Assembly (NCBI RefSeq): GCF_004010195.1
Contig: NC_057754.1
Span: 1,028,124 to 1,072,635 of the forward strand
Direction: 5' to 3'
Source of the DNA: Chiloscyllium plagiosum
Taxonomy: Eukaryota
Length of the DNA stretch: 44,512 nucleotides
In this document: positions 1,986 to 36,457 of the stretch, one piece after another
Position numbering within the stretch: the first letter of the stretch is position 1
Layout of the letters: every line of letters starts with the position of its first letter
The notes under the pieces: model-generated
The model's input: the letters and a program-made list of their open reading frames with translations, nothing else
What the model was told of the DNA's origin: nothing
The model's database searches: none
Position numbers and translations under genes: made by a program

Positions 1986-3803
1986 CATGTAAGGAATTTG
2001 CTAACAAGGATCAGAATTTTAAATTTATAAACTCAATTTAACACAGGAATACTTAGTGCAAGTTATGACAGGCAGCAGAGATTTGGAATAAGCTGCAGTC
2101 TATGGGAAATAGAAATGAGGAGCAAAGGCAAAACACAAGCAGATGCTGGAAATATGACAGAAAATCAAAAGCTGCTGGAAATATTCAGCAAGGTTTTCTT
2201 TATTATTTTCCAAGGGATGTTGGCATCTCTGGCCACCTCAAATCACCCCTTGAACTGAGTGTCTCACTCAGCCCATCTCACTGGATAGTTTACATTGTTG
2301 TGGGTCTGGTGTCATGTGTAGTCTGGACCTGTAAGGATGGCAGATTTACTCCCCATAAACTGATCAATGAACCCAATGGGTTCTTACAACAAATGATGAT
2401 GGCTCTGTGGTCACCAGCATTGGTGATTCGCTTTGAATTTATTACTACGCTGAATTTTAAACTCCACCAGCTGGAGTGGGATTGTCTTCAGAGTAACGTT
2501 CTGGGCCTTTGGATTACTAAGTCCAGCCACATTACCTCTGCACCACCGTTACCACAACAGTAGCATTATCGCAACAGCATCATGGGCAATATCTATGCAG
2601 AGAATCAAGAGCTAATGGGGATATTTATTATACAGCACGGAAACAGACCCTTCAGTCCAATTCATCCATGCCGAACAGGTTTCCCAAAGTGAACTAATCC
2701 CATTTGCCTGCATTTGGCCCATATCCCTCTAAACCTTTCCTATTCAGGGACCTGTCCAAATATCTTTCAGATATTGTAACTGTATCCACCTCTAGCACTT
2801 CCTCTGGCAGTTTGTTCCATATTAACATCATCCTCTGTGTGAAAATGTTGCCCCTCAGATCTTTTTAAAATCTTCCCCCTCTCACCTTCAACCTATGCCC
2901 TCTCATTTTGGATTCCCCTACCCTGGGGAAAAGACCTTATCTATGCCCCTCATAAACCTTTATAAGGTCACCCATCAGCCTCCCCGCTCCAGGGAAAATA
3001 GTCCCCAGCCTCTTCTTACAATTCAATCCGTCCACTCCCAGCATCAGTGGAGAGAAATCAGAGTTAAGATTTCAGGTTCAATGACCCCTCTTCAGAGCTG
3101 ATGGTAGCTAGGAGAAGGATGCTTTATTCCACAGAAGATAAGGTGGGGGGAGGGGGATAGTTAACAATAGGTGGAGATAGAGCCCAAAGAGACAGCAAAC
3201 CAGTTGGACAAAGGAGTGGATAAAGGTCACTGAGGTACTGTTCTTCCAACTTGCATGGAGTTTCACTGGAGTACTGCAGCAAGCCTGAGGCAGAGATGTT
3301 GGCCAGGCCACAAGGTTTCATGAAGCTGTGGTATGTGTTGGGAGCAAAGGAAGAATGGAGCAATGTGCCCCAGAGAAAACGGTCCCTGCAAAACATCGAC
3401 AAGGGACGGAAGAGAGGGGACTGTGTGTCTGGTGGCAGCATCCTGCTAGAGGTGGTGGAAATGGCAACTAATGATCCTATGGATGTGAATGCCGGTGGGA
3501 GGAGAAGGGGACCCTGTTTTTGTTGTGGGAAGTAAGGGAGGGGGTGTTGTCTGAAGTGACAGAGATGGGTCAGACCCAACTGAAGGCCCTGTCAATACAG
3601 TGCTGGAGAATCCTCAGTTGAGGAGGAAGGTGGCCATTTCAGAGGCCCCCTTGTCAACGCTGGCACGTCAGAATAGCTGCAATGGAGACACAGGAATTAG
3701 GAGAATGGAATACAATCTTTATAGGAAGCAGGGTTTGAGGCTGTATAGTCAAGTCGATGGGTATGTAAAGGATATTGGTCACCAGCCTATCTTGAGAAAT
3801 GGA

Positions 3804-3992
3804 CATGATTCGGAGATGCCGGTGTTGGACTGGGGTGTACAAAGTTAAAAATCACACAACACCAGGTTATAGTCCAACAGGTTTAATTGGAAGCACACTA
3901 GCTTCATCTGATGAAGGAGCGTCGCTCCGAAAGCTAGTGTGCTTCCAATTAAACCTTTTGGACTATAACCTGGTGTTGTGTGATTTTTAACT
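3804..3992. mobile_element. Short fold-back PLE-derived insert (family B) with a hammerhead motif in the loop
   Basis: 64-bp arms 3841-3904 / 3931-3994 with 1 mismatch; TSD TTGAGAAATGGA at 3792-3803 and 3993-4004. Confidence 0.8.
3905..3939 (+). ncRNA. Minimal type I hammerhead ribozyme motif (family B)
   Basis: CAU-CUGAUGA-A-GGAGC-guc-GCUCC-GAAA-GC-UA-GUG. Confidence 0.7.
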
Positions 3993-4602
3993 TTGAGAAA
4001 TGGAAACAGAGATATTGAGGATGGGAAGAGGAATCAGAAATGGACTAGGTGAAGGTAAGCGCAGTGTAGAAATTGGAAGCAAAATACATAAACTGTTCCA
4101 ATTCCAGACTAGGGAGGGAAGCAGCTGAGTTGGCGCTCAGCCTCCATAACATAGAAGTTCATACACCAGACAACAGCACCACTTGTCAGTAGGCTTGATT
4201 ACAAAGTCAGGGTTGGATCTGAGAGGACGGAGTGCATTCAGTTCAGAGGGAGATAGGTTGGAATGGGTAAGGGCAGGAAGGCAGACAAATTGAGGTGGAC
4301 CAGTGTCACAACGCTAATTTTTGATGAGCAGGTTGAGTACAGATAAAAGGCCAGAGGAAGGGTTCCAGGTGGAGGGACAGTGTTGGAGGTGGGTAAGGTT
4401 AACTCTGAAATCTCTCCAAATGCTGCCAGACCCGCTGGGTATTTTTTCAGCAATTTCTGTTTTTGATTCTAATTTCCAGCATCCACAGTTCTTTCAGTTT
4501 TTTTGTTTTCCCCCTTGTAGTCGAGTCCCCAAACAGTGGAAATAGTTTACCTTTATCTACCCTGTCATTTCTGGTTAATATCTTGATGACTTAGATCAGA
4601 GC

Positions 4603-5304: not shown

Positions 5305-6210
5305 AATTTAAAGGTAGAAGACAGAGGGTGGTGGAGGAGGGTTGTTTTTCAGACTGGAGGCCTGTGACCAGTGGAGGATAGGCGCTGGGTCCTCTACTTT
5401 TTGTCATTTACATAAATGATTTGGTGTGAGCATAAGAGATATAGTTAGTAAGTTTGCAGATGACACCAAAATTGGAGGTGTAGTGGACAGTGAAGAAGGT
5501 TACCTCAGATTACAACAAGATCTTGATCAGATGGGCTGTTTGGCTGAGAAGTGGCAGATGGAGTTTAATTCAGATAGTGAAGAAGGTGTTTGGTATGCTT
5601 TCCTTTATTGGTCAGAGTATGGAGTACAGGAGTTGGGAGGTCATGTTGCGGCTGTACAGGACATTGGTTAGGCAACAGTTGCAATATTGCATGCAATTCT
5701 GGTCTCCTTCCTATCGCAAAGATGTTGTGAAACTTGAAAGGGTTCAGAAAAGATTTACAAGGATGTTGCCAGGGTTGGAGGATTTGAGCTATAGGGAGAG
5801 GCTGAATAGGCTGGGGCGTTTTTCCCTGGAGCACCGGAGGCTGAGGGGTGACCGTATAGAGGTTTACAAAATTATGAGGGGCATGGATAGGATAAATAGA
5901 CAAAGTCTTTTCCCTGGGGTTGAGGAGTCCGGAACTAGAGGGTATAGGTTTGGGGTGAGAGGGGAAAGATATAAGAGACCTAAGGGGCAACATTTTCACA
6001 CAGACGGTGGTACGTGTATGGAATGAGCTGCCAGAGGAAGTGGTGGAAGTGGGTACAATTGCAACATTTAAAAGGCATTTGGATGGGTATATGAATAGGA
6101 AGGGTTTGGAGGGATATGGGCCGGGTGCTGGCAGGTGGGACTAGATTGGGTCGGCATGGACGGGTTGGACCGAAGGGTCTGTTTCCATGATGTACATCTC
6201 TATGATCTAT
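5305..6210 (+). mobile_element. HER1/CR1-like LINE 3' fragment
   Basis: [65 protein letters not shown] and the family 3' tail. Confidence 0.92.
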
Positions 6211-6677
6211 AAATACTTTGCACACAGCGAACAGTTAGGCTTTGGAACAGTCTGCCTGGAGGTGGAGTGAAGGGCAGGATCAATTGAGGCATTCGAGAGA
6301 AGGCACTGGATAATTATTCGAACAGAGATGGACGGGCAAGGGTACTGGCAAGAAGCAGCAGGATATCAGCAGTAAGCAATGGTTTCAAGAGCTGGTGCAG
6401 GCACCATGGTCTGCACAGCCTCATGCCTCCATAGCACTTCCTTGATCAGAATGCAGATAAAGGATGTAATCTCTGAGCAGATAGATGTGACGAATATAGA
6501 GGGTAGCTAGCAGGTGCATGTAGAGTGGAAGGTTGGAAATATGGATAATAATCGTAAAATGCAGTTGGGTGACATCAACATGAAGCAAAATTTCTTTAAA
6601 AAGCTAGTGCTCCCCTGCACAGCAGAGTTCTTATAGTTAGAGAGATATATATAATAAAATATGGCTATGCATGATTG

Positions 6678-8320: not shown

Positions 8321-11300
8321 TTACGTGTATCTTTTTCTTTGCTCCTGGGTCTGTCTGCCCGCCCCACCCTGGTAGAAAGTCCTGTTTTTTTTTATTCTCT
8401 GAATTCCGTTACCTCTGGGCATGTTTAGACTGTCTAGCGATCACTCCAGTGTCCTTGGGCTGATGAGAGTATGCAAAACATTGCTTTTTTTATTTTGCAG
8501 AAAAATGCATGTATTTTAACATCTGTAGCTTTATTCTCTCCCCAGTTTTTTTTTGCAAGATCTGGGCTCAGCCTGCAGAATTGCAGGGCGCCCTCCCGCA
8601 GCATTTAGCTGCACTCGCCTTCCATGCACACATCTTTAAAAAGAGGAAAACGACATTTTGTGACTGCTTCGAGGAGTTGGGTTTCAGTTAGGTGGGGTTT
8701 TGAGCTCACCTCAGTGAGACTTCGACTCTTCTCCTCTTGTGTTAAGAGCTGCCCAGATGTATCTCTGGGAATTTGGCGTAGCCAGTTGGTTTAAAAATGT
8801 GTTGCTGGAAAAGCGCAGCAGGTCAGACAGCATCTAAGGAGAATCGACGTTTCGGGCATAAGCCCTTCTTCAGGAATGGGAGTTCCTGAAGAAGGGCTTA
8901 TGCCCGAAACGTCGATTCTCCTTAGATGCTGTCTGACCTGCTGCGCTTTTCCAGCAACACATTTTTAAGCTCTGATCCCCAGCATCTGCAGTCCTCACTT
9001 TCTCTTAGCCAGTTGGTTCCCTATTCCTACCCTCCCCCAACAAAATAAAGCTCCCAGCTAACGAATTCTGATGCTTGCAGGATCTGTGTTTGGAGACTTT
9101 TGTCATTGGGGATGGTGATGGGACATGATTGACTGACTGGTTTTAAAATGGCTTTGGAGGAGGGGGGGAGGGAGAAAGAGAGAGAGAGGAGTAGTGGATT
9201 GCGCTCATATCTGTGCAGCCTAGTGGATTAGGGTTTGTGGGCACACAATGTGGTAAGGGTGTGGAGGTGAATAGAGGTTAATGTTTTCCTATGGCAGTAT
9301 CTAGGGTGCAGCAGAGTCCCGTGATCATCGGCAGTGCCTTTGATTAAAATTGAGCTCTTTTTGTTTTGAGCATCTGCTCGGTTTCCAGTGTAGCAGGCTG
9401 ACTTGATGTTCCACATCATCCTCCTGGATTTGCTGCCTTTTTTTCGTTTATGTAGAGATGCGTTGAAGAGTTGGCGAGGTATCTACAAATGGGTTCAGTC
9501 TCTGAATTGGCCACTTTTTTTTTGAGAAATTCTGGCCTGAATGTTAGACGAGGGGAGTAGGAGGTGTCTACATGGGGATGGTGAGTAAGCAGGGTATTGG
9601 TAGCTAGAGATTTTTTGTCGTTGCAAGCATTTCCTGTTGTGCGGTACTGGCCTCACCCTTTCCCCGTTGTCAGAGCTGCTTATTTAATGTGGGGCCAGGT
9701 CTGATTAGGCAAGAATCTAACTTTTTAAAACCTTCAGTGGAAATAACCCACATTCACTCTTGTGAAAGTGCTGTTTCCCTTCAGTTCTGCAAAGGCACTT
9801 AGTCACTTGATTAGTTTCTTTTTTTAAAAAAAACAGAAGTTACCTACTGAATACTTTGTAGAGGTTTGACGAGCACAGTCAGGGTGTCTGCACTGTTGTT
9901 GGAAAAATCAAAGTTTGTCTATGAATCGTGAGTTCTGAAATGCAGTGAAATTGAAACTTCAGCTGAAGTGTCAAATACTTTGCCTAATAAGGTCATTCTT
10001 AAAGCACTGAGTTGCCAAGTGAGATGTATTCATTGTTGGGTTTGACCTGCTTGAAGCCAGTTCCCCATTTCCTGGCCTTGCAATCGGTCCCTGTCGCAGT
10101 TTATTTATGCCCATGTCTGGGGTGGGAGAGTGGGCAGTGAAACCTGTTTATCTGCCTTTTAGTCTGTTCTATCTTGGAAAGAGTGCAACTGGCTAAAGTG
10201 GACAAGAATTATCAAGCTGTGCTCAGTTATTCCATTTAGTTGGCAATTTTCCTCAGTGGAGGGCTCTCAATGGGCATCCATCTGGCACCCAAAACTGCTT
10301 TCCTTGAATTCAGTCTGAGTTCCAAACCTCAACTCTCCTTTGATCTTCCATTGATTTGTGTGGAATCCATTAATTGGTTGTTTTTCTGTTGAGGAAGAAC
10401 TCTATTTTGCAGCCTCTTGTGGATTTAGGGGAGAATACCTAATAAATCTGCCCTCCACATCCTGTACCAAAGAAAATGAATCAAGCCATCCACTCTTCCT
10501 TCATTGCTGAAATTATCTATAAATCTCATCTGCACCATCTCCAGCGTGATCACAGCCTTCCTGTAATGATATATGACAATCCGTGTCTGTACTGGTGAAT
10601 GCAATAACATGCAAGAAATTTCCACCTGTCTTCCTGCCTCCCTTTGGCTGATCCCAGCTGTGAGCTGAATCAATTTGTTCAATCATGTTTCCACTTGTTG
10701 ATAGAAGTTCCAAACCTCCAGCTTGCATCCAGGAGAGTGCTGCATTCCTGAGCTGCTGCTGTGCCTGCGGGGGGAAAGTGAACGTGTATGGTCTGCTGAA
10801 GCTGAAAACAAGACTACACCAGCTTGTAGTCCCAACAGGTGGTTGTGAAGCAGGACCGTAAGAGACAGAAGCTGGGACAGTGATGGAGTGGAGTGGTGGG
10901 GTGGGAAGGAAGATGAAAAAGTCAAAAGGGGTAGTGTTGAGTTGGAATGTTGGATCTGGGATAAGGTTGGGGAGAGGGGAGATTGAATCGGTGTGATTGG
11001 AGGGTCCCAAGGCGGAAGCTGAGGTGTTCTTCCTCCCAGATGTCGAGTGACTACGACCTGTAGTGGAGGAGGTCCAGGGGTTGCATATCCTTGACAGAGT
11101 GGGAGGTGGGAGTTAGTGTTCACCAGTTTCCTAATTTCCCCCCCACTAACTTTTCCCAGATCCAACCTTCCAACTCTGTACTGCCCTCTTGAACTGTCCT
11201 ATCTGTCCATCTTCCTTCCCACCTATCAGCTCCACCCTCCTCAGATGCTACCTGACTGGCTGTGCTCTTTCAGCACCATACACTTATTCTTGTCATGCCT

Positions 11301-14300
11301 CTCCTTTCTGGATACCTGAAGTGGGTCCCCATTTAGTAGTGGTGCTGGGTCCACATCAGGATGGGGATGCTGCAGTGATAGAGGCAATGGTTGCCATTAA
11401 TCCCTAATTGCCTTCATGGTGAGCTGCCTCCTTGGAACTACTGCTGCTGAGCCACCCACAATGTTGTTAGAGGGGGAGTTGCTGAATTCTGACCCAGTCA
11501 ATGAATGCAGTGACCAAGACATAAGCAAGATAAGAGAAGCCTCTGCATAGGCAAAATGAGCTGCTAATTGCCTTGTTTTGAAACAGAATCTCAAAAGACA
11601 TATTCTCTTGGTGGTGTAGGGGGAAGAGACCAATAATCTGGTCCCATTTGCCAGCATATGGCCCATATCCCCCTCAACCCTTCCTATTCATGTACCCTAA
11701 CCCTTGTCCTTGTTTTGAAATAGAATGGTTCCTGGAGTTTGAAAGATGCCAAATGTAACCTCCTAATGAGGGAAAGACCAAATTGGGAGCTAAAGACCTG
11801 TTCTAGCATCAGTTATTTGCTAAAATGTATGACCAAAGTTGTGATGATGCTGGGGAGAATTCAGCATGGATTTATGAAAGGCAAGGATGTGCAGTATTCT
11901 CTTGTGGATTTATTTAAATGGCCAGATAACGGGATCCAGTGAGTGCTGGGTGTTTGGATTTTCAGAAAGTATTCGATTAGTATCAAGATTTTGATGAACA
12001 AAACTCATTCACATGAGAATGGGGGAATATACAGACTAGAATTGAAAGCTGTTTAACTGACAAACAGTGGGGAGAAACCAGTCATTAGGTTTGAGGCGAA
12101 GTCTGAACGCTTAGGCCTTGGCTACTTTGTTTCTCAATGATTGAGGAAAGGCAGGCACAGAGTATTCCAGGATGGTGAAGTTTCTGAGGAGCACCGTGTT
12201 TGATCAACTTGGTCCAAGTGGATTTTGCAATGGCTGCTTTAAAAACAAGAGTTGTGGGATCCAGAGGAATGTAACAAGTCTGATAGGAAAGTGCTCCCCC
12301 CAGGTCGTGGTTGGTGTTTGTGACTGAGAAGGTGTTTCCATTGGGATTCTGCAGGGCCTCCCTGCTTTGTGGTGTTAACCTAAATATACAGGGTACAATC
12401 AAGTTTACAAAACAAAAATGTTGGCATGTGCTTGACAGTGAGGAGAGAAGTCTGCCTTTATTGCAAAGACATGGGGGATAAAATAGGCAAGTGCACTTTG
12501 CCTTTATTTAAGGAGGCTATAATCCTTACCGTTCAGAGAAACTCACCAGGCTGAAATGGTTGGGCTGATGCTTTCAGCATTTAGAATGAAATATTGCGGA
12601 GGGTCTGTCACAGGATAATTGCTGAGAGGATGCTGCCTTTTAAGGGGTTCTTCTATTCACTTTCAGTGATCCTTTCTGCCAGTTTTGGTATCTGCATCAC
12701 CATTTTCTGTAGCAGATAGCTGGCTCAGCCTGTTAATCATTCCAGTTATCATTATCCTGTTCAGAGATGCTGGGTTAGTGAAGCTTTTTACCTCTGCTAA
12801 CACATGGTGGTATTAGTAAATCAGCATTCAATTAGAGGCTGGTTCCTAATAGCCTTTTCAGGAACCACATCTACCATCCCTGCCTGGTCTGGCCTACGTG
12901 TGACTCCAGACCCAAAGTAGTGTGCACTACTTTACCGTCTTCTGAAATGCCCAAACGAGACAGTGGGTTCAGAGGCAACTGGGGATAGGCAGCAAGTGCT
13001 GGGTAGCCCAGCCAGTGACAGTTGGGTGATCTGAAACCTGAGGAAATGCATGCACTTGTCTTTCCAGGCATCCGGTGTAGCAGTCTCCGATGAAGTCGTC
13101 TCCGTTTTCCAGAACATGAAAGTACGCAAATCATGCACCCTGGAGGAGACCAAGGGGAGGAAGAAGGCTGTCTTCCTTACATTGAATGACAAGAAAGAGA
13201 ACATAGTTGTGGATAAGGACAGGCAGATCACAGTTGGAGATTGCTTAGGAGGAGATGTTTCTGACCCTCTTGAAACTCTTGTTAAAATGCTTCCGCTTAA
13301 AGATTGCTGTTATATCCTTTATGATGCCTCCTTCGAGACCAAAGAAACAAAGAAGGAAGAGATAATTTTCATACATTGGTGAGTTCTAATTCATTCTTCT
13401 CTTATAAAGAGAGCCTGGACTATTGTAGGAATTTGAGGTGACCTGAAAGAATTTTATGAAATGAGGGGTATTCCTTAGGGTGGGGCATTTCAAGACTGGG
13501 GGCACATTTTTAAGGTGAGGAGAGGTTTTAAAAAGATGAGGCAAATTTTTAATACAGGCTGGTTTGTGTGTGGAATTAGCTGAGGAAATGGATGTGGGTA
13601 CAGTTACAACATTCCAAAGATATTTGGAGAAGTACAGAACAATATTGGTTATCCAAACATCGGTTATCTGAATTTCAGATTATTTGAACAAGATCTCAGG
13701 TCCTCTATAGCTTCCTTTGTTTACGATCAGTTATCTGAGCCAAATACTTCCCTGCCTGTCTTTTTGGGATAATCGATATTCTGTACATGGGAAAGGTTGA
13801 GGGATATGGGCCAGGAGCAGGCAGGTGGGACTAGTTTAGTTTGGGATTATGTTCACCAGCTTTTCAGCAATTCAAAAGCAACTCCTACTCCTAGGGAGAC
13901 GATGACATGGAACTTGCTCCCATGGGAAGTGGTTGAGGTGAATAATGTGGATAAATTTGAGGTCTGAATATCATGAGGGAGGGTGGAATGTGTTCAGTCT
14001 GGTGCCCTCCTCCATACAACTCTGGTATTAACAATGACTGCACATGTGTGCCCTGGTATGAAAAGTGGGAGGAAGGATAGTGCAGGATCCTTTTTTATTA
14101 TTAAAGACATTCACCATTATTATCTTGATTTTTCCAACAGGGCTCCTGATGATGCACCTATTAATCGCAAAATGATTTTTGCTAGCTCCAAGGAGGCTTT
14201 GAGGAAAAAGCTGTGTGGTATGGCTTTCTGCCTTGCAGAGATTTTAACATGCTGTCCTCTAATATTGAAGTCTTGAGGTCTGTGTCTGTCATTATTCTCA

Positions 14301-18069: not shown

Positions 18070-21000
18070 CTGGAAACAAAAAAAAAAGTATGAAAGTTAC
18101 TTCAAAATAAAAAAAAAAATGAAGTTTCAACAAATAAAGTTCCCCCAACAGCTTGAATTTATTCAGTGCATTCACAGTAAAACACCTTCAAAAAGACACT
18201 CCACAGGAGCTACTGGAATAATGTGCATGAGACACAGGTTAGGCAGTGGAATGAACAGGCTACTAATGGTGCAGCAACAATCCAAGGGTTGATAGAGGTT
18301 CCACAGATAGGAAGGGCTAAAAGGAAATTAAACATCCAGCAACCACACAAGGCCAACAAGCCCGAGAGATAGGCGCTAGCTCTCTGAATGGAGCAGAATA
18401 AACTTCATACCACATTCCACAAATTATTCATGTTGAGGCCAGTTTAATTTTGTTCTGGAATGTTTTAGAGTCAGATTCCAGCCCTTTAGGAAAACGTGTT
18501 GCATTTCATTGCCTTATGTATACAGTGAGACACTACTCAATAGTTTGAGCAGAGATTGGAAGGGGTCCAGTCTCAAGTCACCTCAATCATGTACCAACAT
18601 CCAATCCTCACCTACCTTTGCGTGTTTCAGCTCCAGCTCTGTCATCTCAATCATGTTCTTCCGAAAGGCAGAGACCCTGCGAATTTTAAAGTCGGAGAGT
18701 TCTATGGGCAGCAGGGAAAACAAATTGCGGCGGGGAAGGAAGGAAAGAAAAACAAAGTAAAACGGCCTTGTGAATAAAGTTACCCAGGACATGCACATTT
18801 CTGTAAATACTTTAACTGCGTCAGCCTCCTACAAAACCAGGGGGGGGGGGGGGAAGAAGGAAGAATAAAAAAAGGAAGAGGAAACAAAAAAAAAATCTTT
18901 ACCCCAGCTCAGGACATGTAGGAAACACAGCTACTTCCCACACAGAGACAGACTGACTGTTTTAAGGTGACAAGGAGGGATAGATCTCTTTCATAGAATC
19001 CCTACAGTGTGGAAACAGGCCCTTCGGCCCAACCTGTCCACACCAACCCTCAGACCCATTCCCCTACTCTATATTTACCCCTGACTAATGCACCTAACAT
19101 ACACATCCCAAACACGATGGGCAATTTAGCATGGTCAATTCACCTGACCTGCACAAACTTTGGATTATGGGAGGAAACCGGAGCACCAGGAGGAAACCCA
19201 TGCAGACACGGGGGAGAACGTGCGACAGACAGACAGACACCCGAGGATGGAATTGAACCCAGGGCCCTGGCGCTGTGAGGCAGCAGTGCTAACAACTAAG
19301 CCACCCATACCATCTCCTGACAGCCTGGCTGCCCCTCAGCACTGACCCTCATGACGGCTCAGGTTTTAAATTTGACTCTTGATTTTATGGTGGAGGGCTC
19401 AAGCAGCACCAAGGAGTGATGGGACAATATTGTCAGTCAGCCTGGCAAGAGATGTGACAGCATAGCATGGGCCCGACATCACTTGGTAACCATGGAAACA
19501 GTGAAAAAATCAACATCATACAGGGAAGTACTGGAGAAACTCAGCATAGACCGACAGAATTCAATGGGCTGGTAGGAGGCACTGGCCAGAGTAGCATTAA
19601 TGTCTGGGCTGTTAATCCAGAGACCTAGGTCACGTGCTGGGAACAGGCTCAAATCCTGCCACAGTAGATGGTGGGATTCAGATTCAGTATTAAAAAGGAG
19701 TTAGGGTTAGGCTGTCCTTAACTAGTCTAGCCTATAGGTGGCTGCAGACCCACAGCCATGTGACTGACTGACTGCTCCCAGGGATGGCCAGCAATGCCCT
19801 CATACTATCAATTAGAAAGGAAGTCACACAGGACTCAACGTCAGGTCGGTTTCTCACACAGGTGCTGCCAGACCCAGCTTTCTCCAGCACTCAGTTTTTG
19901 CTTCATGTTTCCAGTGTCTGCAGGATTGTGCCTTTCAGAATCAGATGTACAGCATGGAAACAGAGACCCTTGGGTCCAAACCTGTTCATGCTGACCAGAT
20001 ATCCCAATCTAATCTAGTCCCATTTGCCAGCACTTGGCCCATATCCTCCAAACCCTTCCTATTTATATACCCATCCAAATGCCTCTTAAATGTTGTATTG
20101 TACCAGCCTCCACCACTTCCTCTGGCAGCTCATTCCATACACGTACCACCCTCTGTGAAAGTTGCCCCTTGGGTCCCTCAGATCTTTCCCCTCTCACCCT
20201 AAACCTATGTCCTCTAGTTCTGGACTCCCCCCACCCCAGGGAAAAGACTGTCTACTTATCCTATCCATGCCCCTCCTGATTTTATAAGCTTAAGATCACC
20301 CCCTAGCCTCCGACGCTCCGGGGAAAACAGCCCCAGCCTGTTCAGCTTCTCCTTGTAGCTGAAACCCTCCAACCCTAGCAATATCCTTGTAAATCTTTTC
20401 TGAACCCTTTCATGTTTCACAACATCTTTCCAATAGGAAGGAGACCAGAATTGCACGCAATATTCCAACAGTGGCCTAACCAATGTCCTGTACAGCCGCA
20501 ACATGACCTCCCAACTCCTGTACTCAATACTCTGACCAATGTGAAAGCGCACGGATGAAGGTCCTATTTGAGGAACGGGTCAGGCTGCAGACAATGAATG
20601 GACGTGTGGGGTGGGGTGGGGGGTTTGGAGGTGGAGAGAAGGAATGTCGAGCCCTTTACCTTGCTTGGCTGATTCAGAGAGCTTTTCAAATTTTTGGCAG
20701 CAGCGTTGCTGATTAGTCTCAGCGTGTTTCACATCCTTGTTCTTCATGCGGGCCCGGTCCAGGGCTTTGTTGGCATTTTCATAATCCGACAGAGAGCGAG
20801 CTCTCCGGTACAATAGGTCCTGGGCAAGAAATTCACACAAACCTCACGTCATCCCCAAAGACTGACTCAAATCGAATAAAATGGGATCCTAAAGGCTTGG
20901 AGATTTTTGGTGGCGGTGGTGGGGATTGTTTGTCAGAGTTCCAGAGCACAAAGCAAGGTTTCAAATAAAAAAAAAAAGGAATTCTCAAATCTCCAGGCCT

Positions 21001-24000
21001 CCGGCAACTGGAGACACTGCCCCAGTGGTGGGGTGATGGGAATCAGTGGATGCTTAGGAGGCCGGGATTGGAGGGAGAGTCAGAGCTGCTGGGTTGTTGG
21101 GGCTGGAAGGGGTGACAGAGTTAGGGAGGGGTGTTACATGCAGGGGGCTAGAGGACGTGACAGGGGTAGGGAGGAATATGGGGTGCTGAGGGGCTGACAG
21201 AGACTGGGAGGGATGTACCTATGTATCTGCTGCCCCTTGTCCTTCTGGATGGAAGTGGCCATGGGTTTGGAAGATGCTGCCTGAGGATCTTTGGGGAGTT
21301 TCTGCAGTGTATCTTGTAGCTGGCACACACTGCTGCTACTGAGCGTCGGTGGGGAGGGAGTAGGTGTTTGTGGATGCGGTGCCAATCCAGGGCTGCCTTG
21401 TCCCTGGATGGTGTCGAGCTTCTTGTGTTGTTGGAGCTGCCCCCATCCAGGGGCAAGTGGGGAGTATCCCCTCACCCTCCCGAGTTGTGGGACAGGCTTT
21501 GGGGAGTCAGGTCGTGAGTTGCTCACAGGATTCCCAGCCTCTGGCCTGCTTTTGTAGCCACAATATTCATATGGGAAGCTTAATTCGATATCCCTAGGAC
21601 ACTGATATGGGCTGCCTCCGCAATAGTGGTGCTCAGGGAGAGAGGTGATACATATTGGTACAGACAGACAACAGAAGAAACTGGACACAACAAAAAGCAC
21701 TATTTTAAATCAGGAGTGTAGGGGCTGAGGGCCTGGGCGCATGGACGTCTGCCAAAGGTGGCAGGGGGAATACAGTCGGCGGTTAAAGCGAACTATACCC
21801 CGGGTAGGGACGGACACACACACACGGGAGAGAGGAATGTGTGGTGGAGACAGGTTGAACTCAGACAGAGGAGCATCGGCCGGTTATGTATATAGAAACT
21901 ACACCCTGGGTTTAAAAGAAAAGAGAATGGCACCAAGTTGTGATATGCAGAGAGCTAGAACACATGGGATGGGCTGAGTGGCCTTTTTTTTCCCTGCACT
22001 GTAGCAATTTGGTGCTGCTGTGTGGATATGGAATTGTTTTAGCAGGTGGACTAGGCATGAGGGAGAAGGGTTGACTGATAACAAGTAGGAGGGAGATTTG
22101 GTAGATGAAGGTAGGGTAGAGAAATGCCCCAGGTCAGGGTCAGCCCCTCCAGGAGGGAAGAGGGAGAGCCCCCACTCCAGGAAAGTGGCTGCACACCTCC
22201 CCCACCCCCTACAATTCTCAATCGCGTGGGAGACTTAAAGTTAAAAAAAAAACTGAAGTAAATGCTCTTTTAACATGAAGTTTTAAAACCACGTACAGAG
22301 GAACCTCAATTATCCGGCATTCAATGAATTGAACTGCGGATCATCCAGACAAGATCGCAAGGTCCCGACGCATGGCTAACTGTTACGTGGTGTTTAATTA
22401 ACCAAAATCTTCCCTACCCCTTGGATAAATCGGGTTTCCTCTGTACTTGCCTTTGCTGCTTGTGAATCCCTCATGTAATATCTTAACAAGTCAGAAAGTT
22501 TCAAGTCTTCATCAGATGCCACACGCCCTTCCAGTTTCTACAGAGAGAAAACAAAGGAATTAACTGGCTGAGTATTCTGAGAGATACAAGTTGCCATTGG
22601 CCAAACAAACAGCAAAAACTCATTCTTCTTACCCGAAGTTTCTCAAAAAGTTCTGCAAGTTTCAGAAAGTTCCTGCAACGAGAGAGAAAAGGGAGAGGAC
22701 AAGCAGAAAGTGAATGGGTTAGGTAATTTTGTGGTTTATTGTAGGAGAGACAGACAGCAGATCCAGCTCACTGCCTGCTCCAGAGACACAGCACTGAGCC
22801 AGTCACCTATCTGTCCTCAGAGGTGTGTGAATGTACAGCTAAAGCTACAAACAGCCCTAGTACTCCCCACCGAGCACGGCTGGACTCTCTTCCGAGGCCT
22901 GGGGGGAGGGGTGGAAGTGAGCATCTCTCTGATCACCACAGCATTGAGAAAGACTTCTGGCTTTAACAAAACTGGATGCATTCCAACTCAACAGAAGGTT
23001 AGATACAGAGTGAAACTGCTCCCTCTAGCGTACAGGGAATGTTAAACACTGGCTTCAGTACAATATGGAGAGACACCCCCCCCACCCCACCCCACTTCTC
23101 TTCACCAAATGTGGCAGCAAGATCTTGTAAAGACAGGTACAACTTTGCCATCAGGTGGATGTAGATATATTCCTCCTCCTCCCCTCCCCCCCCACTCCCT
23201 CAAGATGGCTCCTCCAGCAGCAGCTTGCTCCCTCAGCACCAACACCCACCCCACCGCCCCCTGACAGCACCTGGAAGAGGACTAATTCGCTCTGGGAGGC
23301 AGACAGGCAAGCAGGGGAGGCAATGGCCTGCTGGTATTATCACTGGCCTGTCAATCCAGAGAGCCAGGTAATGTCCTGGGGACTCAGGTTCGAGTGCCAC
23401 CATGGCAGGCGGTGGCATTTGGATTCAGTGAATAAAATCTGGAATCAAGAGGCTAGTGATGACCATGGTTGATTGTTGGAAAAAACCCCTTCAGAGAAGG
23501 AAACTGCCATCTTTACCTGGTCTGGGCCTACTGTGACTCCAGGCCCACAGCCCTCTGGGATGAGCAATAAATGGATGTCGGTTTGCTCACGGAGCTGGAA
23601 GGTTTGGTTTCAGACGTTGAGTCACCATACTGGGTAACATCAGTGAGCTTCCAGGTGAAGCACTAGTGGGAATGGCCTGCTTTCTGTTTGTGTGTCACCA
23701 AGGAAACCCAAACAGAGCAGACCATCCCACCAGTGCTTCATCCGGAGGCTCACTGATGTTACCCTAGTAGGGTGATGAAACCAAACCTTCCAGCTCAGCG
23801 AGCAAACCAACATCCAGAACCTCAAGCTGAGCTACAAACCTTCTCAAAACTCACTATGAGCAATAAATGCTGGCCTGGCCAGTGACACTCATCCCGCAAA
23901 TAAACAAAATATAGGTCACAGACAAGTACAGCTGGTCTCACCACTTAGTGCGCCAATTTAGAACAAAAAAAAATGTCCTACTTGCTAAGTGGGTTGGTGT

Positions 24001-27000
24001 CCAATGTTCCCAAACCAGATAAAGCAGAGGAGATTGGAATGTAATCTTCAGCGACATCTGTGGAGAGATGAGAGGGAGCAGACAAGCCAGGGTGAGACAC
24101 AAACAGGCCCTTAGCTCCCATTGCCAGATACAGTTCAGAGGTTGTAAAGATCATAGTGCGAGTGAGCCACAGAACATAGTCTTCCCCCAGTCTGCCACTC
24201 ACTGTTCACAAATAACCTTCAGAGCAACACTGAGTCTCAGTTCTACACGAGTGTACAGCACCCTACCAGTGTGACCACAAGACAGGGATAAGGCAGACCC
24301 TGCTTGATTGGCACCACACCCACTCCCTCCCCCCTCTGACGCTCAGTAGCAGCAGTGTGTACCATCTACAAGTTGCACTGTAGAAACTCAGAAGACCCTC
24401 AGGCAGCACCTTCCAAACCTAATTGATATTAGTGTCAAGCTTTTTTGTGGGGGAACGGGGGTGTTGCCTGATTAATCTAGAAGTGAAAATCTAGAACGCA
24501 CACCCCTACCCTCACCACCTCCTACCCCTAACCACCCTGTTGCAGAAGCTGTAGTGGGACAGGCTCAGAGGATCTGACAAATGGCCTCCTGTATAACAAG
24601 GAAATAAAGAGAAAAAAAAACACTCTTTCCAAGAGGGAGTCTGGAGTGAGGGGAGGTCAGAGCCCACAGATGATAAAACAGCTGAGGGAGGGCTGTTAGT
24701 GTACACGCGCAGCTTGGCGTTATAATACCAGAAAGTATTCAGGACAGCAGAGATCCTGGGAGTGAGTGAGCGAGCGAATGAGTGAGTGACTCCAGAGAAC
24801 CCACTTTTGTGTGAGCGGGTCTTTCTATCCGCCTTCAGCGTCGCATCCTTGACCCGATTGTGATACTCGATGAGGAAGGTCCTCTCGTGCTCAAAGAACT
24901 CGTCCACTTCCTGCAGGAGAAAGAGGATAAACGTTAGCGCGGTCTGTCAGAGCATTCAGGAAAAACTAGATCATCCCCTCAGGTACTCGAATGAACACAG
25001 GGGAGACCATAGGGGGCAAGGACTAAATCGCCAGGATAATGGGCCATGTGTCCTGGGAGTGTTTGATGGGATAAAACAGTGTAGTACTCTGTACCTGTTT
25101 GATGGGAGTGAAAAGAGAAAAATGTAAAAGGAAATTTAAACATTTTTGTTTTCGTTTCTCATTTCCAGCATCAGCAGTTATTTCCAGTTTTTTGTTCAAG
25201 GGAATTTACTTTCAGTTTACAAAGAGGGGAGAGGGAGAGTTATTGTGTTCAACATTTACAGATACTCTCTACAAGAAGTGATATATTAACTGAGCGGAGT
25301 TGCTGAGTTGGTTTCTCCAATATAAAAAGGAAAGATTGTGACAAGGTCAGATGTACCTTCATGCCAGAGATGCCAGTTATTATTGCTTCATCAGCGGTCT
25401 TCACAATGTTCTTTAGAAAACCACCCAGGATCTCCTTCCTATTCTTACCACGGACGCTCAGCTGTGGTTTAAACAAAGATTAAAAAAAAAAAAATCAGAG
25501 TTCAGGTTTTCCAGCTCATTTCCCCATCTCAGGGCACCCCAAAGTTTCACATCCAACAGAGGACTCTTTGGAGAGCACTCCCTGTTGTAAACTAGCAAAG
25601 CAGACACACACACCAATGGGAGTGAACCAGATCAGCTGGTTTTATTTGGTGGATGTCAGTTTCCTTCCCTAAAGGACATTAGTGAACTTGATGGGCTTTC
25701 CCCCAACCAAAACAATGAGATGCTTAATTCCAGACTTATTTTTAAAGAAAAAAAAAGATAATCCAAACTCCATCTTCCATAGCAGGATTCAAACTTGGGT
25801 CCCCAGACTGTTATCAGGGGATCTGGATCAACAGTCCATCGATTACACCATTGGACCGTTACTGGTCAGTGTGATGTTGGATCAAGGATTCCTACCCCAA
25901 GCTCAGTGGTGCTTACTCATTGCTGAGCCCACATCACCCTGAGCAGAGCTGTGCTACTTCAGTGCTGACCCTCATGACCTTGGAGGAGACAGAGCTTCCT
26001 AGAATCAGAATCCCTCATGTGGAAGCAGGCCATTTGGCCCATCAAGTCCATAACAACCGCCCCCCTCTACACTGCAACTTAGCATGGCTCATTCACCTAA
26101 CCTGCACATCTCTGTATTGTGGGAGGAAATCCACACAGACATGGGGGGGAAGAATGTGCAGAGTTTGCACACTCCGCAAGAGGGTGGAATTGAACCTGGG
26201 TCCCTGGCACTGTGAGGCAGCAGTGTTAACCACTGAGCATCCTCCTGGTTGGCACGATGCCTGATTGGAGGGGCTATGGGTAAAAAAGACAGGCAGAACA
26301 ATCCTGGGGAGTGGGAGGGAAAGGTGTACACCGCAGTGAGGGAACAGTTCTGTAAACCTGGGTTCGATGACAGCAGCAACGATGGAGGAATTAGTGAGGG
26401 AGATGTTGACCCCCCCCCACTCCCCAGCCAGGAAGCAGTTAGACCTACCTCCTGATCATACTCCAGAAATACGTAGAAATTGTGGTCCCCCCTTAGCTGC
26501 GGGTGAGCAGCAAGACGTTGCAGGAAGACCTCGTGCATGGCTACCGTCTTTTTAAAGATGGCCAGGTACTCCCTGTGAGGAGACAGGCAGAGAGAAAAAG
26601 ACAATAATTAGACAGAGTGCACGACAGAGCGAGGAAATAAAGGGTTTCGGGAGGAAAGAAAAAAAAAAGTCTTTAGCCAGAGAGCAGGGTGGAGGCTGAA
26701 CTCACTCACACGAAAGAGAATGGTCGAGGTGAATTGTGTCGGTAAAATAAGGCAAAAACTCAGCAAACTCACTAGGGCCATTGGGATGGAACGAGTGTGA
26801 GGGGAGGTTTGGGGAGATGATCAAGCAGGTGGAAGGTGGCAGCACGTGGGGAGTAAGAACAGCCGCTGCTGGGCTGAAGGGCCTCCTGCAAGAGGACATA
26901 GAATTGCTCCAGCACAGAAAGAGGCCATTCAGCTGACAGAATCTGTACTGACCCTCCAGTGGGCATCCTACCCAGATCCAGCCTTTCACCTTACCTGCAG

Positions 27001-30000
27001 ATCGCCACGTTATCATGACAAAATGGCCCTAGCCTGCGTATTCCTAGACTCTCAGGAATTCCCAAGAGGAGCATATTCGCATTTGGATATTTAGATGTGG
27101 GAAGGCCCCAAAGTTGGTTAGGCCACTTTTGGAATATTGTGTGCAATTCTGGTCTCCCTCTTATTGGAAAGATGTTGTGAAACTTGAAAGGATTCAGAAA
27201 AAATTTACAAAGATGTTGCCAGGATTGGAGGATCTGAGCTACAGGGAGAGGCTGAACAGGCTGGGGCTGTTTTCCCTGGAGCGTTGGAGGCTGAGGGGTG
27301 ACCTTATAGAGGTTTACAAAATTATGAGGGACATGGATAGGATAAATAGACAAAGTCTTTTCCCTGGGGTTGGGGAGTCCAGAACTAGAGGGCATAGGTT
27401 TGGGGAGAGAGGGGAAAAATATAAAAAGGGACCCAAGGGGCAACTTTTTTCCCCCAGAGGGTGGTACGTGTATGGAATGAGCTGCCAGAGGAAGTGGTGG
27501 AGGCTGGTACAATTGCAACATTTAAGAGGCATTTGGATGGGTATATGAATAGGAAGGGTTTGGAGGGATATGGGCCGGGTGCTGGCAGGTGGGACTAGAT
27601 TGGGTTGGGATACCTGGTCGGCATGGACAGGTTGGACCGAAGGGTCTGTTTCCATGCTGTACATCTCTAATGACTCCAATAGGTTAACACAAGAGGCTGC
27701 GGACAGGTAGGGGCCAGGGTGCGAGTGAGAGTCTATGAGAGGGTCAGCCCCAGAGAGTCACCCCCACCCCAGTCACTTACGATTCCAGCTCTTGCTTCAT
27801 CTTAGCAAACTCCTCCCGCGTCATGGACCCATCCCCCTCCCCAAGTTTCTGCAGTTTCTCCCGCGACGCGTCAAAGTTTGGTTTTGGAGGGGCAGGAGGA
27901 ATCTGGGGGGGGAAAAAAAAAACAAAACAATGTTTCAGTTGTTCAGGTGACAGCAAAGGAGACGCTGTCTTTCAGTGCATGGCGACTACTGGAAGGTGGC
28001 AGAATTCTCTGTCCATTGTACACAGGGCGATCCCAACTTCCTTCCAGCAGTGTGCCAATCACCCAGACAGACACTGCTCACGAAAGGCATTAGCCCCAGA
28101 GACAACCCCTCCATCCATAGACTGCCCCACTTCACTACCATAGGGTATAGGCAGCACTGGCCGGGTCAGCATTTGTTGCCTTTTCCCAACGGCCCAGAGG
28201 GCATTAAAGAGTTATCCACATAGCTGGGGGTCTGGAGACATGTACAGGCCACACCAGGTAAAGATGTCAGATATCCTTCCTTGAAGGACATTAGTGACCC
28301 AGATGGTTTCCACAACATGTGATGATGGGCTCATGGTCACTTAACTCCTCAAGGCAGGATTTATTTTCTGCCGTCACAGCATTCAAACTCCAGGTCTCTG
28401 GATTAACATCTACTGAAAATACCATTAGGCCGACACCTCACCCTACAGTGGGAGCTTTCCTCTGTATCCAACGCTGCGCTGTCCCTGTCCTAGCAGGGAG
28501 GGAGTGTAGAGGGAGCTTTCCTCTGTATCTAACCCTGTGCTGTCCCTGTCCTGGGAGTGTTTGATGGGGGACAGTGTAGAGGGAGCTTTACTCTGTATCT
28601 AACCCTGTCCTGGGATCTGTTGGATGTTAGACAGTGTAGGGGGAAGCTTTACTCTGTATCTAATCCAGTGCAGTCCCTGTCCTGGCAGTGGGACAGCGTA
28701 GATTAGATTCGATTCCCTACAGCATGGAAACAGGCCCTTCGGCCCAACAAGTCCACACCGACCCTCCGGAGTAACCCATCTAGACCCATTTCCCGCTGAC
28801 TAATGCACCTAATACTATGGGACCATTTAGCATGACCAATTCACCTAACCTGCACATCTTTGGACTGTGGGAGGAAACCGGAGCACCCGGAGGAAACCCA
28901 CGCAGACATGGGGAGAACGTGCAAACTTCACAAAGACACCCAAGGCTGGAATCGAACCTGGGACCCTGGTGCTGAGAGACAGCAGGGCTAACCACTGAGC
29001 TGCCTTGCCGTGTAAAAGGAAGCTTTACTCAGTATCCAACACTGTGCTGTCCCCTCACTGGGAACAGCACATACAGAGAACCAACAACATTTGAGCCCGC
29101 TGTATCTGGTGCAAGCTCCTGGCAGTCGCTCACTTACTATAATCCCAGCGTAATCCTCATTTTCCAAATACGCGTCATGAAGCCATATGAACTCTTCATG
29201 TTGCCGTACCACTGAGAACTCCGGCTGCTTGAAGTGAGCAAGATTCGTCTGAGACGGAGAGAGGGAGGAGAGAAATTAGTGCTGCCAAATGTGACACAAA
29301 GCAAGATCCCACATGCAGCAACATGGGAATGACCCTAAACATGTTGGTGGAGAAATGACATTGGCTCCAGAGAGAGAACCCTCCCCCACCCAGTGTGAGG
29401 CTCCAGTAATGGAGCCTGAAGGTGTCAATCTGTATCAAACTTTACCCAAGGCCAGAGGGCTCGGCCCTCAGACACTGTGGGGACCTGGGCCACCTACCCA
29501 GTCTTCCCCTTTGTACCTACCTTGGTGTGGACTGTAAATTTCACTTTGTCTCTCTCACTGACTGCATCAGAGATCTCCACTTGCAGTGAGGAATCTGTCT
29601 GTAGATCCACCGACATGGTCCTTGACTGTACAGAACAAAAACACACCGGAGACCCACATGGTCATTCTAAAAGATGACAGCAGACCTAAACAATCCTGGT
29701 CTTTCTCAGTGTATAATTTCAATTGCATCACACTAGAAACTTTTGCTATAAATTGGGTCTTACAATCTTATACTCCACAACCACCTGATGAAGGAGCAGC
29801 AGTCCGAAAGCTAGTGTTCCAAATAAATCTGTTGGACTATAACCTGGTATATAGTGTAGTGTAATTTTTAAAGGAGAAAAAGTGAGGGCTGCAGATGCTG
29901 GAGATCAGAGCTGAAAATATATGTTGCTGGAAAAGCGCAGCAGGTCAGGCAGCATCCAAGGAGCAGGAGACTCGACGTTTCTGGCGTAAGCCTGAAGGGC

Positions 30001-33000
30001 TCATGCCCAATACATCGGTTCTCCTGCTCCTTGGATGCTGCCTGACCTGCTGCGCCTTTCCAGCAACCCATTTCCAGCTAGTAGACACACACAGACAATG
30101 TATCTAACCCCATTCTATCCCTGTCCTGGGAGTGTTTCATTGGTGGGGGTACAGTGTAGAGTGAGCTTTACTCTGGATCGAACCCACCCTACATGAATAG
30201 CCGAGGTATGGAGGGATTATGGGAGTCAGCAGGAGGCAGCTGGGACTAGTTTAGTTTGGGGTTTAAATGGTCAGCATGGACTGGTTGGGCCGAAGGGTCT
30301 GTTTAATGTGCTGTGTGACTGTACACCTGGTGACTGCCGCCCAGGGGTCAAACAGGGTGCGGATGCGGTTAGGAAGGCATTGAGGTGACACTCCTGTCTG
30401 ACCAACACCCCCAACTCTCACGTGCAGATATTCAGGCACACAGTCCACCCCAGCTCACACATTTTTGCCACACCTACCCCCTCCCTTTCACACCCCTCCC
30501 CCCCAGTAGTTAAAAAAAAAAAAAGGAGAGTGATGTGGATTACCAGAGAACCTCTAGAGTGCACAAACCAAAAAAAACAAACATTCCCAGTCAGTGTCCT
30601 TTATCCTCACTGAACACAACCTCATCAATACTCTCTTCCGAAGATACAGAAGCTTAAAACACCAACAGGTTCAGGAACAGCTTCTTCCCTGCTGTTATCA
30701 GGCTGCTGAACCCCCAGACCTCTCTCTAACGTTGATCTCCCTCACCCACCCTGTACAGCTGTAACCCTGTAGGTTTCACTTTGTCCAAGTGCCCCACCAT
30801 CCATATGCCCTTATCTGCCTGTACTGCTCACTTTTCACTGTACACAGGACTACAGTAAATCTCTGCTCTCTCATTCACCAACCCACAGGTGAGACTGTAA
30901 TCACGGGCCAAACTCTAATGGCTTCCACAGATTGATGTAGTTAATCCTGTCCCAGGACATGGGCGGCTGCTGAGGTGGAGGATTTGTTGCCCGCCCCCAA
31001 TTGCCCCTCCACTATTTGGGAGGGCAGTCAAGAGGCAACCACATTGCTGCGACTCCATGCTCATGAAAGCCAGACTGGCTAATCTGTCCTCCCTAAAAAA
31101 AGGAAAAAAGGGCCCTGGGGACCCTGGTTAAAAACCAATAAAGGTTGTTATAATCACCATCACTGGCTTTCCATTCCAAATCTGACTGTTAAGATGTTCA
31201 CCATTACATTCCACCAACTGCCTGTAGCAGGATTTGAACTCTATATTCCTGTTAAACGGTGACGGGGCTTCCATGTTGGCCTGGTGGCTATTCACTGTAG
31301 GTCCTTTGCAGGGATGGGGTGTAGATGAGTCACAACATCCATCTGGCACTTGACATTTTGCCCCAAGAGTGTGCCAAGTCTCAGATGAACCAGTAGGGGT
31401 AAAACTAAAATAAAATGTGCCTCAGCGTTGAGAGAGAGAGAAGGAAAACAAAAGTTGAGCAGCTGTGGGCTCTACATACAACATCTTTGCTCTGATCAAA
31501 TCTCTGCTCACTTCATTGTTCTACTCTGTCAATAGAAGTTGTGATGTTTTGGTTTTTCCATCACAGAACATTAGCAGTTTATAGAGTCATTAGAGATGTA
31601 CAGCATGGAAACAGACCCTTCGGTCCAACCCGTCCATGCTGACCCAGATATCCCAACCCAATCTAGTCCCACCTGCCAGCACCCGGCCCATATCCCTCCA
31701 AACCCTTCCTATTCGTATACCCATCCAAATGCCTCTTAAATGTTGCAATTGTACCAGCCTCCACTTCCTCTGGCAGCTCATTCCATACACGTACCACCCT
31801 CTGCGTGAAAACATTGCCCCTTAGGTCCCTTTCCCCTCTCACCCTGAACCTATCCCCTTCAGTTCTGGACTCCCCAATCCCAGGGAAAAGACTTTGTCTA
31901 TTTTTCTTATCCATGATATATTTCCAAGTCAGGATGGGGGGGGGGGGGGCAAAAAATGGGGGGAGCTCCCAAACCCTTGTCCCTCTAGACTGGAGTGGCC
32001 GTGGGTTTGAAAGGTGCTGTCTGAGGACCCTTGTTGAATCTCCGCGGTACACCCTGCAGAAGGCGCACATTGCCACCACCAAACGTAGTGGGGGAGGGAG
32101 ATGACTTTATAAAATAATTAAATGTACATCACTGGTTGCCCGAACATTTATTGCCCATTCCTATTTGCCCCTCCAGAAGTAGGGGATTAATGATATGCCT
32201 TTTTTGATCTGCTGCAGTCCATGGGGTGTACAGACACCAGAGGGTTATAAGGGCAAGAGGTGCGGGATTTCAACTGTGAAAGAATAGCGATATATTTCCA
32301 AGTCAGGATGGGGAGTGGCTTGGAGGGAGGCTTGCAGGGGATGGGGCTCCCATGTATAGAATGGGATTGTTTTATATTTAGAACCCCTACAGTGTGGGAA
32401 CAGGCCCTTCGAACCAACTAATCCACACGAACCTTCCGAAGAATACCCCCGCCCCCCCAATCATTATCTATTACTCAATTTCCTGATGAAGGGCTTTTGC
32501 CCGAAACGTCGATTTTACTGTTCCTCGGATGCTGCCTGAACTGCTGTGCTCTTCCAGCACCACTAATCCAGAATCTATTACTCTATATTTATCCTGGAAG
32601 CAAACCCAGGTCCCTGACGCTGAGGCAACACTGCTGCCCTTGTCCTTCTAGATGGAAGTGGTCATGGGTTTGGAAACTGACATCTGAGGAGCCTCAGCAT
32701 ATTGCATCTCTCTCTAATGTAGGGCAGCTACCTAGGTACATCAGTCTTTTAGGTGAGTGCAGACCAAGAACTGGGTTACTCACAACCTATGGTTCCAGAT
32801 TCCGCAAATTAACCCCTACAACATCCCTCCCTGTCCCCCACATCTTTTTTTAAAAAAGGCTGTCAATTGTTCAGTCTCTTGAGCTAAAGAACAACAAAAA
32901 AGGAAAAGAAATTCTAATTAACTCAACACTTAGGATCTGAAAAATGTGGGAAAGGAAAGGAGACAGAGAGAAAAGCAGCAAAAACCAAAAACAGCATTTT

Positions 33001-34845: not shown

Positions 34846-34910
34846 AATGTCATTGACCCTTATTCTTCCATCAATAACCCAACCCCTCATTAAATACCCC
34901 TCAATCTCCC

Positions 34911-36140: not shown

Positions 36141-36457
36141 CAAACATTTTCACACAGAGCTGCCAGAGAAAAGTACAGTTATCGCATTTAAAATATATTT
36201 GGATGGGTATCTGAGTAGGAAAAGTTTAGAGGGATATGGGCCAAATACAGGCAAATCGGATTAGTTTAGTTTGGGAAACTAGGTTGGCATGGACGAGTTG
36301 GACCGAAGGGTCTGTTTCCATGATGTTTGACTCTATAAGCCCCTATCAAATACTTTAAATCCCCATCAAACACGCAATGTCACCATCAAATACCTTAAAC
36401 CCTCATCAAACACCCAATATCACCATCAAATATCCTAAACCCGCATTAAATAGAATA

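Follow-up and report, generated by a model that had tools for sequence, protein, structure and literature searches.

A 189-bp fold-back with a minimal hammerhead motif in Chiloscyllium plagiosum is very probably a truncated terminal-repeat insertion of a Penelope-like retroelement

Introduction

What kind of sequence is the 189-bp fold-back at 3804-3992 of the window (the whole analysed stretch of 44,512 nucleotides from Chiloscyllium plagiosum), and does it leave the hammerhead motif at its centre free to act? The original prediction described a ribozyme core displayed in the loop between long inverted arms, and looked for its parent among Penelope-like retroelements (PLEs).

Minimal hammerheads (min-HHR) are described from the pLTRs of metazoan PLEs, where their cleavage is weak and confined to dimers (Cervera and de la Pena 2014, PMC4209133). 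Palindromes are reported at inverted PLE junctions (Arkhipova et al. 2013, PMC3846280), an inverted 5'-truncated copy with a one-sided tail of 30-40 bp is given as the norm for PLE insertions (Craig et al. 2021, PMC8557442), and duplications of 8-10 bp are described for them as well. For a PLE protein from Anolis, in vitro work describes cutting and extension of both target strands, two internal start sites, one at each edge of the tail, uncut RNA as the main template, and assistance of hammerhead cleavage by the element protein (Frangieh et al. 2024, PMC11167929); the main text of that paper uses the word "inverted" once, of a blocking nucleotide, and does not deal with junctions. Our literature search found no paper on a shark PLE hammerhead of the present family, which Repbase, Dfam or supplements may list.

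Structure of the insert and its target site

The hammerhead family of this insert is called family B, and a second one in the window family A. The features of the locus are as follows.

3232-3596, minus strand: target DNA, what is left of the ORF of another PLE (linker and endonuclease end), decayed and frameshifted, seen only with query P0003
3792-3803, no strand: left copy of the 12-bp target-site duplication, a perfect match to 3993-4004
3804-3840, minus strand: PLE "tail" of 37 bp, at one end of the insert only, 68% A+C on the sense strand
3841-3904, minus strand: left arm, an inverted 5'-truncated element end that extends 6 nt beyond the predicted cut site, into GAAA
3902-3916, no strand: 7-bp palindrome centred on T3909, at the inverted junction
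3905-3939, plus strand: minimal type I hammerhead, predicted cut after A3936
3905-3907/3937-3939, plus strand: hammerhead stem I, of the CAC/GUG type in copies
3908-3914, plus strand: hammerhead core CUGAUGA, followed by the extra A3915
3916-3920/3924-3928, plus strand: hammerhead stem II, GGAGC/GCUCC
3929-3932 and 3932-3935, plus strand: GAAA and the AGCU palindrome (stem III)
3931-3994, plus strand: right arm, a sense copy holding stem III, the cut site and the 3' strand of stem I
3948-3988, plus strand: complete polyadenylation cassette, with ATTAAA at 3948-3953 (AATAAA in two other copies) and a GU-rich stretch downstream
3993-4004, no strand: right copy of the 12-bp target-site duplication, a perfect match to 3792-3803

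Within the insert, which has no ORF, two copies of an element 3' end are joined head to head, one with the 37-bp tail and the other without it. The arms pair at 63 of 64 positions, with a sole mismatch at 3878/3957, so that the predicted 64-bp arms, like the perfect duplication, hold up on closer inspection. The left edge of the insert at 3804 is the distal 3' end of family B. The right arm stops at the proximal 3' end, 3992, and positions 3993-3994 are common to the arm and the target duplication.

A single 453-nt contig from DNA run X13 (related organism B) matches 3566-3791 and 3993-4219 over 226 and 227 nt, with nothing between them and only one copy of the target; it is 97.6% alike (11 differences in 453). 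Because this contig carries the empty site with one target copy, the insert is a retroposed insertion accompanied by a duplication. The empty site joins both flanks, and the ORF remnant at 3232-3596 is therefore part of the target; as a candidate parent of the insert it was rejected. The decayed PLE remnant that received the insert spans 3048-3596 (minus strand) and approximately 4005-4420, the PLE origin of the right flank being judged by eye, and it carries a decayed hammerhead of its own, of a third type, near 3095 (minus strand).

The insert shares with the insertions of endonuclease-bearing PLEs described in PMC3846280 and PMC8557442 the head-to-head truncated copy, the one-sided tail, the duplication and the junction palindrome. 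It differs in being only 189 bp long, in lacking an ORF, and in a duplication of 12 bp as compared with 8-10 bp in rotifer. The tail of 37 bp falls within the 30-40 bp range, and one-sided tails likewise occur in the fold-backs at 43225 (family B) and 8792-9003 (family A). We consider it very likely (probability about 0.9) that 3804-3992 is a single, severely 5'-truncated insertion of the pLTR (terminal repeat) of an endonuclease-bearing PLE. The class is not new: PLE end stubs of this kind have been known since 2013-2014, and family B is a further member.

Other copies in the window

Further members of the two families, collected below, allow a comparison of how such ends are placed.

8792-9003, no strand: family A fold-back; arms of 86 bp, both strands with an intact hammerhead, extension at one side, duplication 14/15
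10799-10853, minus strand: weak, decayed family B end, 78% over 42 bp (E 0.002-0.013)
29782-29871, plus strand: solo family B copy (motif 29782-29816) without a tail, stem II only 3 bp, abutting a family A fold-back
42155-42273, minus strand: solo family B copy (motif 42230-42264) with a tail, core intact, stem II 4 bp
43225-43436, no strand: second family B fold-back, decayed, tail at the left only, flanking repeat 9/10 identical

Both solo copies keep the core and the CAC/GUG stem I, as had been predicted, and the 5-bp stem II seen at 3804 is shortened in each of them. The copy at 42155-42273 has a 15-nt deletion 3' of stem I and no clear duplication; it sits inside one copy of a LINE 3' end. 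The family A fold-back that adjoins the 29782 copy (29875-30073) is older and likewise displays no clear duplication. At 43225-43436, where decay had been noted from the start, the sequence turns out to be a fold-back itself, with the entire decayed hammerhead on the minus arm, a plus arm that begins at stem II, and a centre different from that at 3804. Hammerhead placement relative to the arms differs in all three placeable fold-backs (3804, 43225 and 8792). The arms ending at 42273 and 43362 share a stopping point some 12 nt upstream of the core.

In the weak copy at 10799-10853, the hammerhead was deleted between two short direct repeats. This copy lies about 130 bp downstream of a remnant of a PLE endonuclease C-terminus (10979-11035, minus strand). 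It may be either the parent's own end or a later insertion, and judged from its position gives a weak hint of ORF linkage.

Two 3' ends and the inverted junction

Loose ends of family sequences pile up at two places. The first pile, at 3804/3805, comprises at least 674 + 820 records in DNA run X2 and at least 487 + 654 in X13; the second, at 3839-3844, at least 507 + 480 (X2) and at least 450 (X13). From both piles the sequences continue into unrelated AT-rich flanks. Family B thus has two family-wide 3' ends, 35-40 nt apart, and these match the two outer ends of the insert, with 3992 mirroring 3843. The same arrangement of two 3' ends bounding an AC-rich tail, with AT-rich flanks, is described for Poseidon PAc of Anolis carolinensis (PMC11167929).

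These ends suggest a way in which the insert might have formed. The GIY-YIG endonuclease of the parent would make a 12-nt staggered cut in the target, and reverse transcription on uncut element RNA would start at the two internal start sites of family B. Each strand of the staggered cut would prime one cDNA, one at the distal and one at the proximal site, and the two short cDNA ends would then join at the palindrome in the hammerhead core. The hairpin would be a by-product of insertion, which turns off the ribozyme of the 3804 copy. That the stubs record such a two-primer mechanism, one that would explain the inverted junctions and one-sided tails of PLEs and would have seeded the genome with many RNA hairpins, is a doubtful proposal. 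If it were true, there would be very many RNA hairpins of 60-90 bp with poly(A) signals on both strands, comparable to inverted Alus, and such hairpins would end host transcripts and feed A-to-I editing or small-RNA silencing. Two observations hint at this, the polyadenylation of family RNAs at 3965/3968 and the frequency of A>G and T>C changes in RNA run X21 (see below).

The same PLE origin could be combined with a different junction step, in which the inversion comes not from two primers but from self-priming (snap-back), with a single template or an antisense RNA as substrate. The 7-bp palindrome at the junction speaks for it, as PMC3846280 interprets such palindromes as signs of self-priming. 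However, the right end of the insert falls at the second 3' end cluster, for which a snap-back copy offers no obvious reason, and both strands were extended in vitro (PMC11167929). We consider self-priming less likely than not and treat it as a live rival for the junction step, the two-primer step being what we infer from the positions of the ends. A single base might carry a trace of the event. T3907 is peculiar to the 3804 copy, with C at this place in 92-97% of the family depth in 4/4 runs; it may derive from the inverted arm via the junction palindrome or, alternatively, from a point mutation.

Uncut RNA templates

Run X21, raw single-cell poly(A) RNA of which about 2% was read, yielded 2476 reads on the insert region. 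Nearly all of them (99%) run on into other sequence, and because the unique flanks are at most 1.4 reads deep (0-1.4), the reads are to be ascribed to other family copies. Sense RNAs in this run carry A-runs after 3965 (336 reads) and 3968 (369 reads), which is 12-15 nt downstream of the hexamer that starts at 3948; these A-runs are probably untemplated. Uncut polyadenylated family B RNAs exist: read depth is the same on either side of the cut site (1012 vs 1023). No pile of read ends occurs at 3936/3937 or elsewhere, in a poly(A) library that would lose a 30-nt product.

The sites of poly(A) addition lie some 30 nt beyond the predicted cut and short of either genomic 3' end; the template for insertion must therefore, we infer, have been a read-through RNA. 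The genomic copies point in the same direction. All six arms of the four clear family B insertions in the window run 5' past the cut site and none starts there, which indicates that the RNAs that were copied had not been cut. PAc displays the same use of uncut RNA as template and the same lack of read ends at the cut site (PMC11167929). Most likely, the hammerhead in the tandem pLTR RNA of the parent works only as an AGCU dimer or with help from the element protein.

Variable places in X21 are A>G or T>C changes in 35 of 102 cases, as compared with 15 of 83 in DNA run X2 (p=0.02) and 22 of 100 in X13 (p=0.06), in comparisons of unmatched individuals with paralogues mixed. In X17, a run whose RNA status is guessed, the count is 22 of 53. 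The excess in X21 is only a hint of A-to-I editing.

The position of the arms bears also on another class of hammerhead-bearing sequence. Non-LTR retrozymes were reportedly treated by Cervera and de la Pena in 2020. As non-autonomous elements based on circular RNA and delimited by hammerheads, they resemble the insert in being short, non-coding, PLE-derived and furnished with a type I hammerhead, and they have been found in one chondrichthyan genome, with a proposed origin from pLTRs (bioRxiv 10.64898/2026.07.22.740005). Family B is non-coding and very abundant as well, and the insert could be a monomer of such a retrozyme. In contrast to retrozymes, the insert is inverted and not tandem, and it is the PLE tail sites, not the cut site, that determine where it ends: head-to-tail tandems are found in 0/4 clear family B insertions in the window, and 0/6 arms begin at the cut. 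A retrozyme origin is improbable on these grounds.

Masking of the ribozyme by the fold-back

Whether the fold-back presents the ribozyme or hides it depends on where the arms end. The loop at 3905-3930 is 26 nt long and contains no more of the motif than CUGAUGA, stem II and the GA of GAAA. Everything from 3931 to 3939 (the rest of GAAA, AGCU, the cut site, the stem I 3' strand) is right-arm sequence. Because the right arm begins within GAAA, its pairing with the left arm takes in stem III as well as the cut site and the 3' strand of stem I.

The predicted fold of the whole insert has an energy of -117.7 kcal/mol (z -17.7), and in it positions 3933-3939 are paired to the left arm with a probability of at least 0.999. 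The hammerhead shape can be imposed at a cost of 17.4 kcal/mol in the whole insert as compared with 3.4 kcal/mol in the right arm alone. Transcription yields the left arm before the right, and by the time the RNA extends to 3940 the cut site is already paired (P 0.995). ViennaRNA assigns stem I a probability near zero in solo copies too (at most 0.0002), and for this reason the masking argument rests on the difference between 17.4 and 3.4 kcal/mol and on the pairing of the cut site. Cofolding of two copies returned no dimeric hammerhead, a shape that the program cannot model. In these models, the fold-back masks the 3' half of the hammerhead in any RNA that spans the whole insert, rather than displaying the core, and neither the cut site nor stem I is free to form in the predicted fold of a transcript of the 3804 copy. 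The proposal of a displayed ribozyme thus fails at its central point. The 3804 motif differs in this respect from the min-HHRs of PMC4209133, as it is masked by an inverted arm.

The insert could also be a functional mini-element, copied as a unit, whose fold-back exposes an active ribozyme in its loop. This would agree with the intact core and stem II in the loop, with the formation of stem II in the predicted fold, and with the recurrence of fold-backs in two families. It conflicts with the predicted fold, in which the arm captures the cut site together with stem III and the stem I 3' strand early on, with the different centres at 3804 and 43225, and with the family A hammerheads, which lie whole within the arms. 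An unchanged junction is also rare, as depth in X2 is 576 at 3903 and more than 200,000 at 3907, so that few contigs cross it. We regard a mini-element as very improbable.

The hammerhead motif as a member of the PLE type

The sequence at 3905-3939 has the CUGANGA...GAAA...UH core and the type I topology of the PLE minimal hammerhead. The extra base A3915 is present, the pair G3916-C3928 is G-C in 5/5 family B sequences, and the palindromic 15.2-16.2 element without loop 3 (AGCU) is invariant in the same five. An AGCU stem III in a minimal hammerhead of PLE type, distinct from that of family A, was part of the original prediction and is confirmed. On the minus strand of the insert, no hammerhead core was found.

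A strict descriptor (core, stem II of at least 4 pairs, 2-nt palindrome, UH, stem I of at least 3), composed after the motif was seen, matched 2 places in the window and nothing in any of 300 dinucleotide shuffles. With a relaxed descriptor there were 7 matches in the window (3 of family B, 4 of family A), to be counted as two independent families and not as seven events, as compared with 2 across all 300 shuffles. The motif is not a product of chance. The original prediction, which argued against chance from an architecture shared by families A and B, is right that the motif is non-random; the shared architecture is the generic pattern of PLE insertions.

In the five sequences available, stem covariation is not significant, its score being reached by 36/500 shuffles; 82% of stem cells are paired in their alignment, a value matched by 19/500 shuffles. 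No compensatory change occurs inside the stems of these five, and only the outermost pair changes on both sides. The letters of loop 2 vary in all 4 runs. A search of Rfam gave no hammerhead family at E<=1 and 8 matches, every one under its gathering score. Matches of the insert to microRNA and SRP families were rejected as reflections of long hairpins.

Compared with the min-HHRs of PMC4209133, the motif has the same type I order, CUGANGA with one extra base, G10.1-C11.1, no loop 3, palindromic 15.2-16.2 and a short stem I. Among the 56 rows of Fig. S3 in that paper, taken from a PDF with a displaced GAAA column, G15.2/C16.2 without a loop (AGCU stem III) occurs in 5 and a stem I containing CAC/GUG in 4. 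None of the 56 rows (0/56) is from a cartilaginous fish, and none (0/56) combines AGCU, a cut after A and the GGAGC/GCUCC stem II.

Link to PLE coding sequence

A scan of metagenome and viral contigs with the exact hammerhead pattern matched two metagenome contigs, L001 and L002, and returned 0 matches among the viral ones. L002 has a frame of 177 residues that includes a CxxxxCxxC linker and finishes in a GIY-YIG-type end; the hammerhead follows about 750 nt downstream on the same strand. This hammerhead is 92% identical to that at 3804 over 38 nt, with stem I lengthened to 5 bp. Two relatives of the L002 protein were found among 92 candidates (P0001 and P0002), and both are RT-plus-endonuclease proteins; P0004 was rejected as a PLE relative, being an unrelated repeat protein. 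The linker is kept in L002, P0001 and P0002 and is of the Neptune/Nematis type (CX2-5CxxC before GIY-YIG), although L002 is not the parent of family B. The L002 frame, the sole ORF linked to a near-identical hammerhead, differs in this linker from Poseidon, which lacks it. The endonuclease assignment of L002 is based on motifs and on the relatives P0001, in which GIY-YIG scores below the cut-off, and P0002; Pfam and NCBIfam gave no family for the endonuclease piece. Matches of the RT piece to NCBIfam toxin families were discarded as noise (12-14 bits against cut-offs of 650-725).

L001 bears the same hammerhead-containing repeat as L002, beside an inverted piece of PLE RT that is 49% identical to P0002. 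Inverted PLE pieces adjoin the same terminal repeat in both contigs (L002:1-109 and 983-1091, L001:99-449). With the window, L001 and L002 have only the 38-nt hammerhead in common; they represent, for this reason, a parallel family in another organism and not the parent. A tblastn search of the window with the L001 and L002 pieces, P0001 and P0002 gave nothing significant, and no ORF of family B's own parent joined to the repeat was found in the window. The original search for a PLE parent was well directed: a near-identical hammerhead lies 3' of a PLE endonuclease end in L002, from another organism.

A MITE or microRNA-like hairpin with a chance hammerhead-like string, as suggested by the long inverted arms, the duplication and a weak Rfam match to MIR860, can be dismissed as practically impossible, since the match (40.3 bits) lies far below the gathering score of 89, the 37-bp tail is one-sided, solo one-arm copies exist, and the motif is non-random and occurs in a PLE terminal repeat (L002).

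Implications and further features of the window

As it stands, the significance of the truncated PLE insertion is small, and its value is that of data. Clean insertions for which the empty site, both ends and the junction can all be read, as here, bear on how the inverted junctions of PLEs form. The uncut templates bear on whether the hammerhead cuts during transposition. There is also a warning in it: hammerhead counts in genomes of this kind include masked or dead copies.

The window holds several features of other origin. A cofilin/ADF exon lies at 13035-13382 on the plus strand (Pfam PF00241, E 1e-10) and a PX-domain exon at 26089-26607 on the minus strand (PF00787, E 7e-5). A probable further exon of a sorting-nexin-like gene, judged by eye and with no Pfam match, is located at 24512-24946 (minus strand). 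At 23572-23816 there is a 245-bp imperfect inverted-repeat element with an arm identity of 79% and no hammerhead match. A LINE 3' end, which we take to be CR1/L2-like, is present in many copies (5573-6213, 19943-20540, 27114-27679, 43690-44287 and others), the one tested having no Pfam match. A minisatellite with a 20-bp period extends over 34885-36145, with related arrays at 36336-36452 and 37724-38130.
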